Source of the DNA: a virus
IMG/VR virus record: IMGVR_UViG_3300010218_000006
Span: 1-64,000 of that record
Length of the DNA: 64,000 nt
Reading direction: 5' to 3' (one strand)
Shown here: positions 2,451 to 59,276 of the stretch, in pieces
How the letters are laid out: each line of letters opens with the position of its first letter
Numbering within the stretch: position 1 is the stretch's first letter
Position numbers and translations under genes: made by a program
The notes under the pieces: model-generated
What the model was told of the DNA's origin: nothing
The model's input: the letters and a program-made list of their open reading frames with translations, nothing else
The model's database searches: none

Positions 2451-2762
2451 TTACAAAAGTTTGCAAGAAAGCACGAAATGCCTGCTGAATTTACGGGACG
2501 GGGTATTACTTGTCTCTATGTGGTTTATTAGAGTGTAGACAGTTCCACGGACACCCCCTGTAATAAACACGGACGTTATCGTGCCAGATATTTGCTCACT
2601 AGATAGAGTAATGTCAGCCGTAGATGCTCCAGATAGTGTAGTGACTTCCCATGTGCTTGTAGTGATTGTCTCTCCAGTTGACAATTCTCCTACATAATCC
2701 AGACTGTAATCTAAGGCGGATGCCGGCGAAATGTCTCGTTCAATACTGGTTGGTGTTATCAT
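2451..2762 (-). CDS. hypothetical virion-associated protein
   Basis: 103-aa ORF in the late array; Ser/Thr-rich. Confidence 0.45.
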   Translation of the reverse strand: MITPTSIERDISPASALDYSLDYVGELSTGETITTSTWEVTTLSGASTADITLSSEQISGTITSVFITGGVRGTVYTLINHIETSNTPSRKFSRHFVLSCKLL

Positions 2763-2769
2763 AGTATCC

Positions 2770-3153
2770 TTACTCTGCTTTTATAGTCCTGCTAGTGCTC
2801 TCAACTACTATAGACCTACCACTTGATGCTGTACGCAATAAGCGCCTCAGCGATGGCACATAATCCCCCGCTGTGGCAGTATACGTTAAGGAGAGCGACA
2901 TTCCGTCAGTATGGAAGGTTCTTGATGAACAGGTCAAATATCTATTATAAAAGAGTGAAACAGTGCTTGTTGATTGAGAAAAAGACCCTGTTGACACGTT
3001 CAATGAATAGACCCCAACTGGTGAGTAGCTAAGAGTTACAGGATTTCCTGAAAAAATGAAAGATGCTGCGGAGCAATTTAATACATATCCGGAAGAAGTG
3101 ATGTCACTACTAGAACCGATTGAAATACCCCCAACAGCGGACGATCCTATCAT
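2770..3153 (-). CDS. hypothetical Ser/Thr-rich protein
   Basis: Start moved to Met14, which has an AGAGG RBS and sits just after the upstream stop at 3156. 127 aa. Confidence 0.4.
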   Translation of the reverse strand: MIGSSAVGGISIGSSSDITSSGYVLNCSAASFIFSGNPVTLSYSPVGVYSLNVSTGSFSQSTSTVSLFYNRYLTCSSRTFHTDGMSLSLTYTATAGDYVPSLRRLLRTASSGRSIVVESTSRTIKAE

Positions 3154-13373: not shown

Positions 13374-13434
13374 GAGTTTTGACTAAAAATGTCAAGTTTC
13401 ATATTTTCAATATGCTGTTTGCCACTTTCGTAGC

Positions 13435-15882
13435 CTATATTGACACGATAGGTGATGCTTGGGACATGTCTGGTAGGGAGAATGTTGGGATGGTGATTTG
13501 ACGAGCTAATGTAGAAAATGCGTCAGAAGTCGCATCCACCTGATCGTCCTTTTGAGTACGCAATCCACTAAACTCCTCAAGTTCATTGAAGAATGCCTCG
13601 TTCCAATCCCCTCTTACAATCCTCACAGAGCCGCTTTCCGCTAATGCAGAGAATGGCTTAAATCTTGTCACTTTACCACTATGCCCTGAAATGCTACATG
13701 TTCTTGCAGGAACACCGTGCTCTGCTAATACTCTCAGGTAGAAGGCATTAGCTGTCTTTCCTGCTGCTCCGGGGTCCATAGGAATTGTGACATGACACTC
13801 CTCAATGCCGTCTGCAAGTGCAACGTCCACCACAGTTTTAAGAACCTTGTCAGTTCTTGCTCTGAACCTTACAACATCTTCTATATAGTAGATGCCATAC
13901 TTATCCCGACTCATCTTGACACCAACCGTCCAGTCGGGGTTGGGCAAAGCTGCGCTTACCTCACTGCCTGCAAAGTCCCAAGACCTTACACGAGAGATCG
14001 GGTTGTCAGGAGGAAAATCCACGACAGGTGTCCATTCCCTTTTGAAATAACCCGCACCAGATTCTTTGGCTGTCCAACTCCCATGCAGGTATTTAAGCTG
14101 GTTAACTTTAGGCTGCGCCAACAAGTTTGCCAAGTACGATGTATTTCTTGGAGGCAACAAATACGGATTGTCGAATACTCCAGTAGGAATAAAACGAAAG
14201 GATTTGGGCATGCAAAGACGTAGACGTTCTTCTTTAGTGAAGTTCATCATCTCTTGCTCAGTCATTCCGTGAGCATAAATCATGTTGCGTGGCTTACCGT
14301 ATAACTCAAACACTTCCTCAGGAGAGTTCCCCCAATGTGCCTTGTTATCAATAACGATAAACCATCTAATTCTGTGCTCAGTGCCCTCTACAGGGACTCC
14401 CGTCTCGGGGTCTAGGCAGAACTCAACCCAGTTTTTCAGAAAAGAATTGATGTCTGGATTCGCAGTCAGGATCAGTTGAGGATGAATCTTTGAGTGTGCG
14501 GATCGGATACGAGAGAGTAAAAATAGGATTTGATGTTCTGTCCATTTGTCTGCAGCTTCGTCTACGAGGGCGCGAACTAGCTGTGATCCTTGCCAAGAGC
14601 CTAGGTCGTCGTCGCAGGCAATTGCGGAGAAGCTAATAACAGCCCCAGATTTAAAATCCCACTTGAGAGCCTGTGACTTGAACTCCCCGCCAAAATCTGT
14701 ATATACCTGCTTGCTCTCATCCACTAAACCGCCTTGGCGAGTGAGTTCTGGCCGAGTTCTACGGAAGATAGTACAGCGAAAATTAGGGTCGTGGATGCCG
14801 TCTAAGTTTTTAGTAAGGCACGTAAAACTGTTGTGGGTTACAATAAAATCTGTTGTTACAAACAGTTTCTCGCTACCAGATATGGAAATGCAGGTAGCAA
14901 AGTCTTTTCCAACGGGATGTATGTCGCTAATCCTGTTACCAACACCTTTTGGACGGCAACGGGAAACTTTCCTACTCAAGCGAAACAACCTTGCAGAGTC
15001 TTCTCCGCGTATATAGAGCTTATATACCTTGCTGCAAAATACCCTTTCTCCGTCTTTTTTATAACTTCCGATTTTTGTTGTCTGTGTTACTGTGTAACCT
15101 AAGCTCCTGAGAAGATAAGTGACTCCCATAGCTAGTTCTTCAGATGTTGTATCAAAAAAGGTCTTACCGGCAGAAGACACATACCCGTCTGTGTCCATTA
15201 AACCTTGGACGATACTGAACCTGTCTTCTACAGAAGCTTCAAGATATTGCTTTGGAATAAACTTAGTTTGGGATAGACTCCCATTCAGGCCCAACTCTCT
15301 TAGTTGCGGTGAAATTCCTATTACGGTCCTACTTATGGCCTTGTTTGCTGCTCGATTTTTTATTTGAGGCTTACCCAACTGGTAGCCTGCAGTTTCTATT
15401 GACCTGAATATATCGTCATCCATAGATGTCATCTGGCAGCTTCCGTTTACAGAGATATATCCATCTCCAAGAGCGCAGCCCAGCACATACGGATCGATTG
15501 GTAGGTAACTTTTTTTGCCAAATTCAACCGGCTTTACTACTGGTGTAATAGGTAGGTTTTTCCTTTTCCCTGACTTTTTGGCATTCTCTCTACGTACTTT
15601 ACTAAGCAGTTCTAAAGTAGTTTTTACTTTAGTGGCTGACTTTCCTCTACCGGCTTCGTGGTATTGCCACAAGTGCTCTCCGCAGCAGTCTATGGTTCTA
15701 CCATCTTGGAACGTGACTCTATAAATGTCAACGATTCCTTGAGGCCATACGTTCTCAACTTTTTCAACATTGTTGGAGGGAGTTACAACTAAGTCTCCGA
15801 CCTTAATATCCTCAATGTTAATGAATCCGCTAGGAGTTAATACTTTTTCACCATGCCGTAGCGCCTTACCACCCCCGGCTCC
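13435..15882 (-). CDS. terL: terminase large subunit, exon 2 (contains intein)
   Basis: After intein removal the sequence reads GAGGGK|SFT (Walker A), LVDEAAD (Walker B) and LTANPD, followed by a nuclease domain. The ATG called at 15885 is intron sequence. Confidence 0.85.
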   Translation of the reverse strand, partial: GAGGGKALRHGEKVLTPSGFINIEDIKVGDLVVTPSNNVEKVENVWPQGIVDIYRVTFQDGRTIDCCGEHLWQYHEAGRGKSATKVKTTLELLSKVRRENAKKSGKRKNLPITPVVKPVEFGKKSYLPIDPYVLGCALGDGYISVNGSCQMTSMDDDIFRSIETAGYQLGKPQIKNRAANKAISRTVIGISPQLRELGLNGSLSQTKFIPKQYLEASVEDRFSIVQGLMDTDGYVSSAGKTFFDTTSEELAMGVTYLLRSLGYTVTQTTKIGSYKKDGERVFCSKVYKLYIRGEDSARLFRLSRKVSRCRPKGVGNRISDIHPVGKDFATCISISGSEKLFVTTDFIVTHNSFTCLTKNLDGIHDPNFRCTIFRRTRPELTRQGGLVDESKQVYTDFGGEFKSQALKWDFKSGAVISFSAIACDDDLGSWQGSQLVRALVDEAADKWTEHQILFLLSRIRSAHSKIHPQLILTANPDINSFLKNWVEFCLDPETGVPVEGTEHRIRWFIVIDNKAHWGNSPEEVFELYGKPRNMIYAHGMTEQEMMNFTKEERLRLCMPKSFRFIPTGVFDNPYLLPPRNTSYLANLLAQPKVNQLKYLHGSWTAKESGAGYFKREWTPVVDFPPDNPISRVRSWDFAGSEVSAALPNPDWTVGVKMSRDKYGIYYIEDVVRFRARTDKVLKTVVDVALADGIEECHVTIPMDPGAAGKTANAFYLRVLAEHGVPARTCSISGHSGKVTRFKPFSALAESGSVRIVRGDWNEAFFNELEEFSGLRTQKDDQVDATSDAFSTLARQITIPTFSLPDMSQASPIVSI
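14830..15864 (-). mobile_element. intein (345 aa) with LAGLIDADG homing endonuclease, class 3 signature
   Basis: It starts ALRHGEKVLTPSG after Walker A Lys and ends VTHN|S. Two LAGLIDADG motifs are present (LGCALGDGYI, IVQGLMDTDGYV), as is the Trp(B12)-Cys(F4)-Thr(G5) triad. Confidence 0.85.
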
Positions 15883-16139
15883 CATTATTTTCGAGTAATC
15901 TCGCTACAATTACTCCGCTTTCGCTGCTGCAATTTAGTTTTTATATTTGCAGATAAGACTATATCTTCGCTTCTTGTTTAAGAAGGACTCCCGTTTCCAC
16001 TCGCTTGAGTGTACGGCTCGCGCCTAGTCGTTGAACGTTATTCTCAGGATTGAGAATCTTCGCTGCTGGTTATCTTTCTCAAGACTTTCCAGCAATTAGA
16101 GAGTTGTTTTTTACCCTTGGAGGCAGATTAGTGTTGTTT
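15883..16139 (-). mobile_element. group I intron (ORF-less, IA-like) in terminase large subunit gene
   Basis: The P, Q, R and S core elements, the P1 guide pairing with U.G at the 5' splice site, and a terminal G are all present. Splicing restores an in-frame P-loop. Confidence 0.85.
16041..16056. repeat. TTCTCA-N4-TGAGAA motif copy (forms intron P6)
   Basis: TTCTCAGGATTGAGAA on the plus strand. This is the same duplex 16-mer as at 16496 and 30780, in inverted orientation. Confidence 0.9.
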
Positions 16140-16223
16140 ACCACCAAGCAGGATGACATCTGTTGTGTTATCCGTTAAAAATAGCCGCTGTTTTTCCGAC
16201 GCGGGACCGTAAATCTTACTCAT
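16140..16223 (-). CDS. terL: terminase large subunit, exon 1 (28 codons)
   Basis: AAGGAG RBS followed by the ATG at 16223. The exon encodes MSKIYGPASEKQRLFLTDNTTDVILLGG and ends in the T that pairs with the intron guide G. Confidence 0.8.
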
Positions 16224-16354
16224 AAGCAACTTTCTCCTTGTTTCAAAATAACCTCCTCATAGGTTTGTTAATGATTTTAAAGGAGCACAATCAGGATTAC
16301 TGAGGAGGTTGTCTTGGAGGAGACTCCCGATCATGCTGCTTTAAAACCACTTCA

Positions 16355-16392
16355 AACAAAAAGCCCCGCTCAGACTTAATCCAAACGGGGCT
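16355..16392 (-). terminator. terminator-like hairpin with T-tract
   Basis: The minus strand reads AGCCCCG-N17-CGGGGCT followed by TTTTGTTT. Confidence 0.5.
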
Positions 16393-16495
16393 GTCTGCAA
16401 GGACGTACCTTGCAGGAAATGACGAAATTCTTGCATAGGCGGCACGCTCCCTTCCCCTATGACCCGCCAAAGCATTCTCTTTGGCCTCTCCACTA

Positions 16496-16511
16496 TTCTC
16501 AATCCTGAGAA
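16496..16511. repeat. TTCTCA-N4-TGAGAA motif copy
   Basis: TTCTCAATCCTGAGAA, 3 nt downstream of the stop of 16515..16865. Confidence 0.9.
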
Positions 16512-16514
16512 ATC

Positions 16515-16865
16515 TTAATCCAACGTCCTAACCGTAGTAAAATCAACTATCGGCCTTTTAGACCCTTCGTCAGACTCTACAAGCCTCCCATTACTGCCGC
16601 CCTTAACAAGCTTCAACTCTGCCACCATACGCTGAATCTTATCCGCATTAATCTTCTCTGTAACATCAATATGAAAGTCTAGCAGCTTCGTAGCAGCCGT
16701 CAGACGAATCTTCTCATCCTCGCTGTGCATACACTTAAGCAACACATCTACAGCCTCTATGGACGCCTTATCCAACGCCTTGAGCAGCTTTTTCAGCTTA
16801 ATCTCATCTTGCGTAAAACTGATGTCATCCTTGATTACAAGTAGTTGAGAGCTATTATTGCTCAT
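16515..16865 (-). CDS. terminase small subunit candidate
   Basis: 116-aa helical ORF, the first gene after the late promoter and immediately upstream of terL. Assigned by position only. Confidence 0.35.
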   Translation of the reverse strand: MSNNSSQLLVIKDDISFTQDEIKLKKLLKALDKASIEAVDVLLKCMHSEDEKIRLTAATKLLDFHIDVTEKINADKIQRMVAELKLVKGGSNGRLVESDEGSKRPIVDFTTVRTLD

Positions 16866-16899
16866 GTGTGCTCCCGCTAATTAATTTTCTAATATAAAC

Positions 16900-16928
16900 A
16901 TTGTATCACATAAGTTGCATTTTGTCAA
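16900..16928 (-). promoter_or_regulatory. sigma70-type promoter TTGACA-N17-TACAAT (late operon)
   Basis: The minus strand reads TTGACAAAATGCAACTTATGTGATACAAT. Confidence 0.65.
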
Positions 16929-59181: not shown

Positions 59182-59256
59182 CTCTCGTTAGCTCAGCGGA
59201 ATTAGAGCAACGGGTTTCTACTCCGTAGGTCGTAAGTTCGAATCTTACACGAGAGG
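59182..59256 (+). tRNA. tRNA-Arg (anticodon UCU); CCA encoded at 59257-59259
   Basis: Hand-folded cloverleaf: acceptor CTCTCGT/ACGAGAG, D stem GCTC/GAGC, anticodon stem ACGGG/TCCGT with loop TTTCTAC, and T arm GTAAG-TTCGAAT-CTTAC. Confidence 0.9.
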
Positions 59257-59276
59257 CCAAATTTTAAAGGGGCTAA

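Follow-up and report, generated by a model that had tools for sequence, protein, structure and literature searches.

The terminase large subunit gene (terL) considered here is carried on a 64,000-nt stretch of viral DNA, positions 1 to 64,000 of IMG/VR virus record IMGVR_UViG_3300010218_000006. This stretch is referred to below as the window, and its coordinates are used unless a related contig is named. The gene lies on the minus strand together with two elements that interrupt it, a group I intron and an intein bearing a homing endonuclease (HEN) domain, both of them located within codons for the Walker A motif, or P-loop, of the packaging ATPase. The source is an uncultured tailed phage with a genome of about 90 kb; related contigs are 75–94 kb in size, with Portal_Mu and a Peptidase_S49 protease encoded downstream of terL. 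The chief addition made by our analysis is a corrected gene model which consists of exon 1, the group I intron, and an exon 2 that contains the intein.

In a mechanical list of open reading frames (ORFs), the locus appears as a single ORF of 816 aa (13435..15885, minus strand), open through all 816 codons and beginning with MGAGGGK followed by ALRHGEKVLTPSG. The initial annotation took MGAGGGK as the protein start; this was wrong, and the exon and intron directly upstream had been overlooked. The ATG at 15885–15883 is spurious and represents the last three bases of the group I intron. The N-terminus is encoded in another frame by terL exon 1 (16140..16223, minus strand), 28 codons reading MSKIYGPASEKQRLFLTDNTTDVILLGG, with a translation that is colinear with the N-terminal ends of homologues lacking the intron; this reading frame is preceded by an AAGGAG ribosome-binding site, and a stop codon follows the exon. 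The ORF-less intron (15883..16139, minus strand; 257 nt) is succeeded by the start of exon 2 (15865..15882, minus strand), GAGGGK, which provides the last six N-extein codons, including the glycine-rich loop of Walker A and Lys-1, and fits the homologue sequence GGGAGGGKS. There follow on the same strand the N-terminal splicing region of the intein with blocks A and B (15520..15864; residues ~1–115), the LAGLIDADG homing endonuclease domain (14944..15519; residues ~116–307), the C-terminal splicing region with blocks F and G (14830..14943; residues ~308–345) and the TerL C-extein (13435..14829), which runs from Ser+1 (14827–14829; SFTCLTKNLDG...) through the remainder of the ATPase domain and the RNaseH-like nuclease to the stop codon. 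The true precursor is 843 aa long, with a 34-aa N-extein (exon 1 plus GAGGGK) and the intein at precursor residues 35–379; the earlier residue numbering of 8–352 is valid for the mechanical ORF only. Once the exons are joined and the 345-aa insert is taken out, the predicted mature TerL has 498 aa; its production would need RNA splicing first and protein splicing second, at sites 18 nt apart.

Assignment of the host gene is based on matches to Pfam Terminase_6N (25.2 bits versus a cut-off of 22) and Terminase_6C (65.1 versus 22.6), both falling in the C-terminal 460 residues of the ORF, and to TIGR01630 (60.4 versus 41.65 bits); NCBIfam also yielded the psiM2_ORF9 terminase domain and several intein-containing equivalogs. 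The predicted product is a TerL of the Terminase_6 family with an N-terminal P-loop ATPase and a C-terminal RNaseH-like nuclease. When the spliced 498-aa protein was used as query, 1422 matches were obtained. The protein P0001, of 499 aa, is 93% identical to the doubly spliced product over 100% of its length. Its N-terminus (MGKVYGPASEKQRLFLTDNTTDVILLGG) is colinear with the exon 1 peptide, it reads MGKVYGPASEKQRLFLTDNTTDVILLGGGAGGGKSFTCLTKNLDG, matching both predicted junctions exactly, and its P-loop stretch (...DVILLGGGAGGGKSFTCLTKNLDG) is uninterrupted, as it is in dozens of further homologues. Overall, the P-loop is read without interruption (...GGGAGGGKS...) in about 64 of the best 120 TerL homologues, and the DNA of an empty allele (contig L001) aligns through both junctions. 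A megablast search of positions 13400–16900 against GenBank phages gave no match, and the closest annotated TerLs, those of Pseudomonas PA10/Zigelbrucke-like phages, are only about 42% identical (tblastn); consequently, the phage appears to be without a close cultured relative.

The intron was detected with Rfam model RF00028 at 61 bits against a gathering score of 50 (E 7e-15), and no further intron was found in an Rfam scan of the whole window. Helix P1 is formed between the 5'-exon sequence CUUGGUGGU and the internal guide GCCUCCAAG, with a U.G pair at the last base of the exon, U16140, while the 3' end of the intron reads AAUAAUG, its terminal G15883 being the G of the spurious ATG. Only a 3' splice site at G15883 gives the LLGG↓GAGGGKS of the homologues (the arrow marks the junction), and this position is also favoured by the introns of the related contigs L003 and L004, which end in the same AU(A/U)UG↓G context. 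Other 3' splice sites were considered and rejected. An in-frame site after G15904 would produce LLGG↓RDYSKIMGAGGGK, where homologues read LLGG↓GAGGGKS without extra residues; a second in-frame site, after G15892, would produce LLGG↓KIMGAGGGK, with extra residues that occur in no intron-less homologue; and an out-of-frame site after G15902, which allows a better, 5-bp P10 pairing (AGAUU/AAUCU), leads into a stop codon. In its core the element is similar to other group I introns of phages, and we interpret 15883–16139 as a group I intron that, to judge from its structure and homology, would be self-splicing.

For about 38 of the best 120 homologues, gene calls start inside or just after the P-loop (MGAGGGKS, MAGGGKS, MGGKS, MKNLDG...), and each of the three such contigs examined (L003, L005 and L006) carries a group I intron above the Rfam threshold directly upstream. 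In around one third of the related terL gene calls the N-terminus is missing, and P-loop introns appear to be the cause. Rfam places these introns at 2760–3003 in L003 (89.6 bits), 1263–1512 in L005 (66.8 bits), and 980–1214 and 1224–1476 in L006 (74.4 and 78.9 bits), with another at 2756–3003 in the intein-bearing contig L004 (73.4 bits). They are homologous to one another and to the window intron. An alignment of the six copies shows compensatory double changes in 29 of 51 consensus pairs, including pairs of P1, where the guide sequence tracks the exon in site-b introns. The introns occupy different sites: LLGG↓GAGGGKS in the window, L003 and intron 1 of L006; GGG↓AGGGK in L004; and GGGAG↓GGKS in L005 and intron 2 of L006. 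In the latter contig (ENA ERZ28594974 scaffold_196, which carries P0047; region 940–1500) the two introns flank a 9-nt mini-exon, GGTGCGGGT, encoding Gly-Ala-Gly of the P-loop. The three intron sites fall within 9 nt of P-loop codons and, together with the intein site, they constitute at least four insertion points in about 21 nt. This segment of terL may therefore be a hot spot in this phage family, with at least three sites for introns and one for an intein. The intron shows no enrichment among intein-bearing homologues, being present in two of six that could be scored compared with about 38 of 102 intein-less ones; the two elements thus appear to move independently and there is no evidence for an obligatory linkage.

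A free-standing ORF is located directly upstream of terL exon 1 in L003 (2098–2670, plus strand) and L005 (346–1155, plus strand), the two sharing a C-terminal region, and it is absent from the window. The L005 ORF scores just under the Pfam cut-off for DUF723 (20.3 versus 20.9 bits) and gives a weak AP2 match, and the L003 ORF matched no Pfam family. These ORFs may encode a homing endonuclease that serves the intron.

The second interruption extends from nt 15864 to 14830 (minus strand), 345 codons from Ala (GCG) to Asn (AAC), ending ...DFIVTHN before Ser (AGT). The initial annotation had placed a 345-aa insert between the Lys and Ser of the Walker A motif (ORF residues 8–352, ending DFIVTHN before SFT) and had argued that its excision restores a contiguous GAGGGKSFT. 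Both points hold, since the restored motif is read uninterrupted in P0001 and in the intein-less homologues. The Hint blocks recognised earlier lie at intein positions 1–13 (ALRHGEKVLTPSG), 60–66 (CCGEHLW), 321–328 (DFATCISI) and 340–345 (FIVTHN), and the two LAGLIDADG motifs, 90 aa apart, at 128–137 (LGCALGDGYI; nt 15454–15483, minus strand) and 218–229 (IVQGLMDTDGYV; nt 15178–15213, minus strand). Searches with hidden Markov models (HMMs) bore out the proposed endonuclease, with the insert alone exceeding the Pfam cut-offs for LAGLIDADG_3 (36.3 versus 22.5 bits, E 6.7e-9) and Hom_end (31 versus 21.1 bits, E 2.9e-7), but the Hint_2 model remained below its cut-off (21.5 versus 28.4 bits); in the ORF these matches, including the weak Hint_2 one, cover residues ~10–300. 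Each LAGLIDADG motif ends in an acidic residue before Gly (LGCALGD134G and GLMDTD226G), and both are conserved in eight full-length homologues.

The splicing domain was recognised by comparison with known structures. In a single-sequence search of the PDB, the gp41-1 intein was the best match (E 1.9e-9), and PI-SceI matched over the endonuclease part. A profile built from seven splicing domains (alignment A1) detected gp41-1_WCT, an engineered gp41-1 variant (6riz, 1e-15), wild-type gp41-1 (6qaz, 2e-12), a bacterial intein-like (BIL) domain, the DnaB1 inteins MchDnaB1 and MsmDnaB1 (7e-3 to 2e-2) and Prp8 inteins. An AlphaFold model of the insert, made with an alignment of ten homologues, had a mean predicted local distance difference test score (pLDDT) of 86 and a predicted template modelling score (pTM) of 0.83, with the endonuclease domain mostly at about 90. 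Foldseek ranked PI-SceI highest (E 9e-16, template modelling (TM) score 0.65), followed by TliVMA, PhoVMA, PI-PfuI and I-DmoI, also I-Tsp061I, and, after these endonucleases, by the mini-inteins gp41-1 and Mch and Msm DnaB1. The insert is consequently described as an intein with a Hint splicing domain and a double-motif LAGLIDADG endonuclease, for which splicing and DNA cleavage are predicted. At the identical position, the proteins P0017 and P0043 possess this intein in a shortened form of about 150 aa that has lost the endonuclease domain, as a homing cycle would predict, and the same intein type is present at the same Lys–Ser site in the more divergent TerLs P0123, P0124 and P0126. GC content at third codon positions is 0.38 in the intein and 0.45 in the C-extein. 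A six-frame scan of the window with the family HMM revealed no second intein of this family. Some gene calls among the relatives start at intein residue 2 or end about 90 residues into the intein (P0121, 94 aa on a 165-kb contig, and P0100, 803 aa); these could reflect further interruptions, frameshifts or degenerating inteins.

Class 3 inteins are defined by a residue 1 that is not a nucleophile, by Trp at B12, Cys at F4 and Thr at G5 as a co-varying triplet (here abbreviated WCT), and by Ser or Thr at +1 (Tori et al. 2010, PMC2807308), and these positions were restated in PMC5050341. The initial annotation had assigned the intein to this class, and every residue on which it relied is present. 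Residue 1 is not Cys, Ser or Thr but Ala (GCG, 15862–15864), as in all seven homologues with a complete N-terminus. Trp66 (B12, 15667–15669), two residues past the block B His64 (B10, 15673–15675), is invariant within His64-Leu65-Trp66, which aligns with HQW of MchDnaB1 and MsmDnaB1 and HLW of gp41-1_WCT. At the block F position usually taken by Asp, as in wild-type gp41-1, there is the invariant Cys325 (F4, 14890–14892) of ATCISI, aligning with vrCveV of MchDnaB1 and liCieV of gp41-1_WCT. Thr343 (G5, 14836–14838) precedes the terminal His344-Asn345 (Asn345, 14830–14832), vTHN aligning with pTHN of MchDnaB1, and the +1 nucleophile that follows VTHN (14827–14838) is Ser (AGT, 14827–14829). In ten TerL inteins that are 53–65% identical, Ala1, Trp66, Cys325, Thr343, His344, Asn345 and the +1 Ser or Thr are invariant (alignments A1 and A2). 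In the profile alignment, the Trp, Cys and Thr of the window intein are in register over the whole splicing domain with those of class 3 MchDnaB1 (6rix) and of gp41-1_WCT, Cys325 and Thr343 corresponding to C124 and T143 of the former and C107 and T123 of the latter (PMC7664689). Moreover, Phe335 is an aromatic residue ten positions past the block F Cys, like Phe330 of the MP-Be prototype.

An exhaustive phmmer search with the window splicing domain yielded 8732 cluster representatives at E<=1e-3 and 4055 at E<=1e-10; a word-indexed protein search with the mini-intein profile gave six matches. Among 234 intein copies located in the best 150 proteins of the phmmer search, 172 carry Ala or Pro at residue 1; the complete triad accompanies Ala1 in 144 copies and Pro1 in 28, and it occurs with Cys1 or Ser1 in 16. 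Residue -1 is Lys in 141 of 194 copies, typically within G-x-G-K, and residue +1 among the relatives is Thr (146), Ser (60) or Cys (9). The window intein is therefore a typical representative of a very large class 3 family with a preference for Lys–Ser/Thr sites in P-loops, and its class 3 status is supported by every sequence criterion; splicing by the class 3 pathway, through a block F thioester, would be expected. Another Cys, Cys61 at block B position 7 (15682–15684), is invariant in the TerL clade and is found in 113 of 220 relatives. In class 1 inteins this position is usually Thr. Given that Cys61 adjoins the active site, a redox-sensitive disulfide with Cys325 is conceivable, although this is speculation.

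Taken together, it is very probable that the P-loop codons of terL are interrupted twice and that the gene is expressed by two successive self-splicing events, with the intein spreading by endonuclease homing. At the RNA level, the 257-nt intron would leave the pre-mRNA, joining exon 1 (..ILLGG) to exon 2 (GAGGGK..) and creating the 843-codon reading frame. As residue 1 is Ala, the intein in the translated precursor cannot open with an N–S or N–O acyl shift. Instead, following the mechanism published for class 3 inteins (Tori et al. 2010, PMC2807308; Beyer et al. 2020, PMC7664689), Cys325, positioned by His64, Trp66 and Thr343, would attack the Lys(-1)–Ala1 bond to form the block F branched thioester, the N-extein would move to the Ser+1 hydroxyl to form a block G branched ester, and cyclisation of Asn345 would free the intein; an O–N shift would then form the Lys–Ser bond, such that GAGGGKS, and hence ATPase activity, is regained. 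At the DNA level, the endonuclease of the free intein, with catalytic Asp134 and Asp226, would cut the intein-less terL of co-infecting relatives at GGTAAG↓AGT, and recombinational repair would copy the intein into the cut allele. With a donor carrying both elements, the intron only 18 bp away would, on established homing biology, be co-converted with the intein. A stronger proposal is that intron and intein constitute one composite mobile unit, the ORF-less intron being mobilised by the intein endonuclease through co-conversion, an instance of 'collaborative homing' that would bridge RNA and protein elements; this we advance tentatively and consider doubtful.

Several points weigh against the proposed two-step scheme. 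The pairing of the intron with exon 2 (P10) is weak, at about 3 bp. The Ala1 and WCT residues grafted onto gp41-1 resulted in a non-splicing protein (Beyer et al. 2020, PMC7664689), and the signature is therefore necessary but not sufficient proof of class 3 chemistry. The AlphaFold model lacks the exteins and its last five residues have pLDDT below 50, which puts the geometry of the active site beyond checking. Finally, we infer the splicing of both elements, the block F thioester and the endonuclease activity from sequence.

The alternatives differ in how much of the scheme they would replace. Practically no weight is given to the 345-aa segment being a fixed, non-excised accessory domain or to the gene being a dead pseudogene. 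The former, which the initial annotation had itself put forward as the contrary case, is ruled out by intein-less orthologues with a contiguous P-loop, including about 64 of 120 close homologues, and 345 aa between the Lys and Ser of GxxxxGKS would be incompatible with nucleotide binding, from knowledge of P-loop nucleoside triphosphatases (Kelley et al., PMC5050341); a pseudogene accords poorly with a frame that is open over 816 codons and with the conservation of all catalytic splicing residues. One might also suppose that the upstream interruption is not an intron, with translation starting at ATG 15885, two polypeptides being made, or a frameshift intervening, and ORF finders and gene callers do start at or near MGAGGGK on many related contigs. 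We regard this as highly improbable because the window intron and five related copies all score above the gathering threshold of the Rfam group I model, with covariation, because ATG 15885 has no ribosome-binding site comparable to the AAGGAG at exon 1, and because the exon 1 peptide, including the beta-strand required before the P-loop, is conserved and contiguous in intron-less homologues.

Two further possibilities accept the intein but alter its properties. It could splice by a route other than class 3, for example by direct attack of Ser+1 as in class 2 (KlbA-like) inteins, the WCT residues being structural only. Ala1 by itself would also fit class 2, and the failure of the grafted gp41-1 to splice (PMC7664689) points the same way. 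This is, however, very unlikely: class 2 inteins by definition lack WCT and their described mechanism attacks via Cys+1 (PMC2807308), Trp, Cys and Thr are invariant and co-occur with Ala1 or Pro1 in more than 170 of the 234 relatives, and the block F Cys is obligatory in the class 3 prototype (PMC2807308). Alternatively, the intein may splice but carry an inactive endonuclease, persisting as an immobile resident since its imprecise loss would wreck the Walker A motif. The mini-inteins P0017 and P0043 do demonstrate endonuclease decay in the lineage. The window intein, however, retains both LAGLIDADG motifs intact, terminal Asp residues included, and these are conserved in the eight full-length homologues, the domain is modelled with high confidence, and the spread of the same intein type over divergent TerL exteins implies recent mobility, which together render this alternative unlikely, and an active homing endonuclease remains the preferred reading.

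Other features of the locus were recorded alongside. Between a 116-aa ORF (16515–16865) and terL exon 1 there is a GC-rich hairpin followed by a U-run (16345–16400, minus strand; GCCCCGUUUGG...CUGAGCGGGGCUUUUU), which resembles an intrinsic terminator and gives a partial, sub-threshold Rfam match to the small RNA Atu_C7. The sole tRNA in the window is a tRNA-Arg (anticodon TCT) at 59182–59259 on the plus strand. In the related contigs L001, L003, L004, L006 and L007, one to three tRNAs occur just upstream of terL, and none is found there in the window.

There are implications for annotation, in that the start codon chosen by gene callers for terL of the window, and for about one third of the related genes, is a false ATG or TTG within the P-loop. 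The group I intron conceals the first 28 codons and intein-bearing copies seem about 345 aa too long. On the proposed scheme, an essential packaging ATPase would rely on successive RNA and protein self-splicing within one catalytic motif, and the locus would offer a compact natural system for studying competition and cooperation of selfish elements over a single conserved target, which could show whether a HEN-less intron rides on an intein endonuclease. The existence of an Ala1/Trp/Cys/Thr family close to class 1 gp41-1 also bears on the question of class 3 divergence or convergence (PMC7664689), and the family could yield working class 3 scaffolds close to gp41-1, which is widely used in engineering. 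The scientific value is nevertheless modest and rests on the close juxtaposition of intron and intein, and on the hot spot in the relatives.

Neither element is out of the ordinary for its kind, and both kinds of selfish element are well known; phage terminases, and P-loop Lys–Ser/Thr sites, are already well documented as locations of class 3 inteins. The window intein shares with the class 3 DnaB inteins of mycobacteriophage Bethlehem (the prototype), Mycobacterium smegmatis and M. chimaera (DnaB1; PDB 6bs8 and 6rix) a non-nucleophilic residue 1, Trp B12, Cys F4, Thr G5, a C-terminal His-Asn and Ser or Thr at +1. As in MchDnaB1, where the N-extein ends ..SVGK (PMC7664689), insertion is directly after the P-loop Lys. 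It differs in that the host protein is TerL rather than a DnaB helicase, in its weak sequence similarity (profile E 7e-3) and in possessing an endonuclease, whereas the Msm and Mch DnaB1 inteins are mini-inteins without one.

The closest solved relative by sequence is gp41-1 (6qaz), a naturally split intein of a cyanophage-like metagenomic helicase, which shows about 38% identity over blocks A–B and has the same THN↓S C-terminus. However, gp41-1 is class 1 (Cys1, Phe B12, Asp F4), split and endonuclease-less, in contrast to the Ala1/Trp/Cys/Thr intein of the window. No splicing is seen with the engineered gp41-1_WCT (PMC7664689); the window intein, by comparison, occurs naturally, interrupts an essential gene and belongs to a conserved family. 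This family matches class 1 gp41-1 (profile E 2e-12) far better than class 3 DnaB1 (7e-3); the argument made in PMC7664689 is that class 3 arose convergently and did not diverge from class 1. Like PI-SceI (VMA1), TliVMA and PI-PfuI, the window intein has a Hint domain interrupted by a double-motif LAGLIDADG endonuclease, but PI-SceI is class 1 (Cys1), 454 aa long, carries an extra DNA-recognition region and is only 16–17% identical.

Inteins in the ATPase domain of mycobacteriophage TerLs include those at the 'classic' P-loop Lys–Thr/Ser site, TerL1-a (Kelley et al. 2016, PMC5050341). The same study describes class 3 TerL inteins with active LAGLIDADG endonucleases, splicing and endonuclease activity having been demonstrated for several; those it names as class 3 occupy sites c, d and e. 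According to a 2025 survey, actinobacteriophages contain 287 class 3 inteins, of which most interrupt TerL or Cas4 (bioRxiv 10.1101/2025.01.02.630785). The hosts of the actinophage inteins are Terminase_1 or actinophage TerLs, whereas that of the window intein is of the Terminase_6 type, with its closest cultured relatives about 42% identical, and neither paper (PMC5050341; 10.1101/2025.01.02.630785) reports an adjoining intron such as occurs here.

RNA and protein self-splicing elements have been found together in essential conserved phage genes before. Group I introns and an intein occur in the SPbeta ribonucleotide reductase genes bnrdE and bnrdF, according to the citation of Lazarevic et al. 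1998 in PMC6293099, and crAss-like phages of the Delta and Zeta groups carry group I introns and inteins in the same genes (PMC7886860). In the literature searched, which was not exhaustive, no description was found of an intron and an intein spaced by 18 nt. The window locus resembles the SPbeta and crAss-like cases in combining both kinds of element and differs from them in that these lie 18 nt apart in a single catalytic motif and the intron is ORF-less; it is these two features, together with the fact that the nearest solved relative of the class 3 intein is a class 1 intein, that are less usual here.

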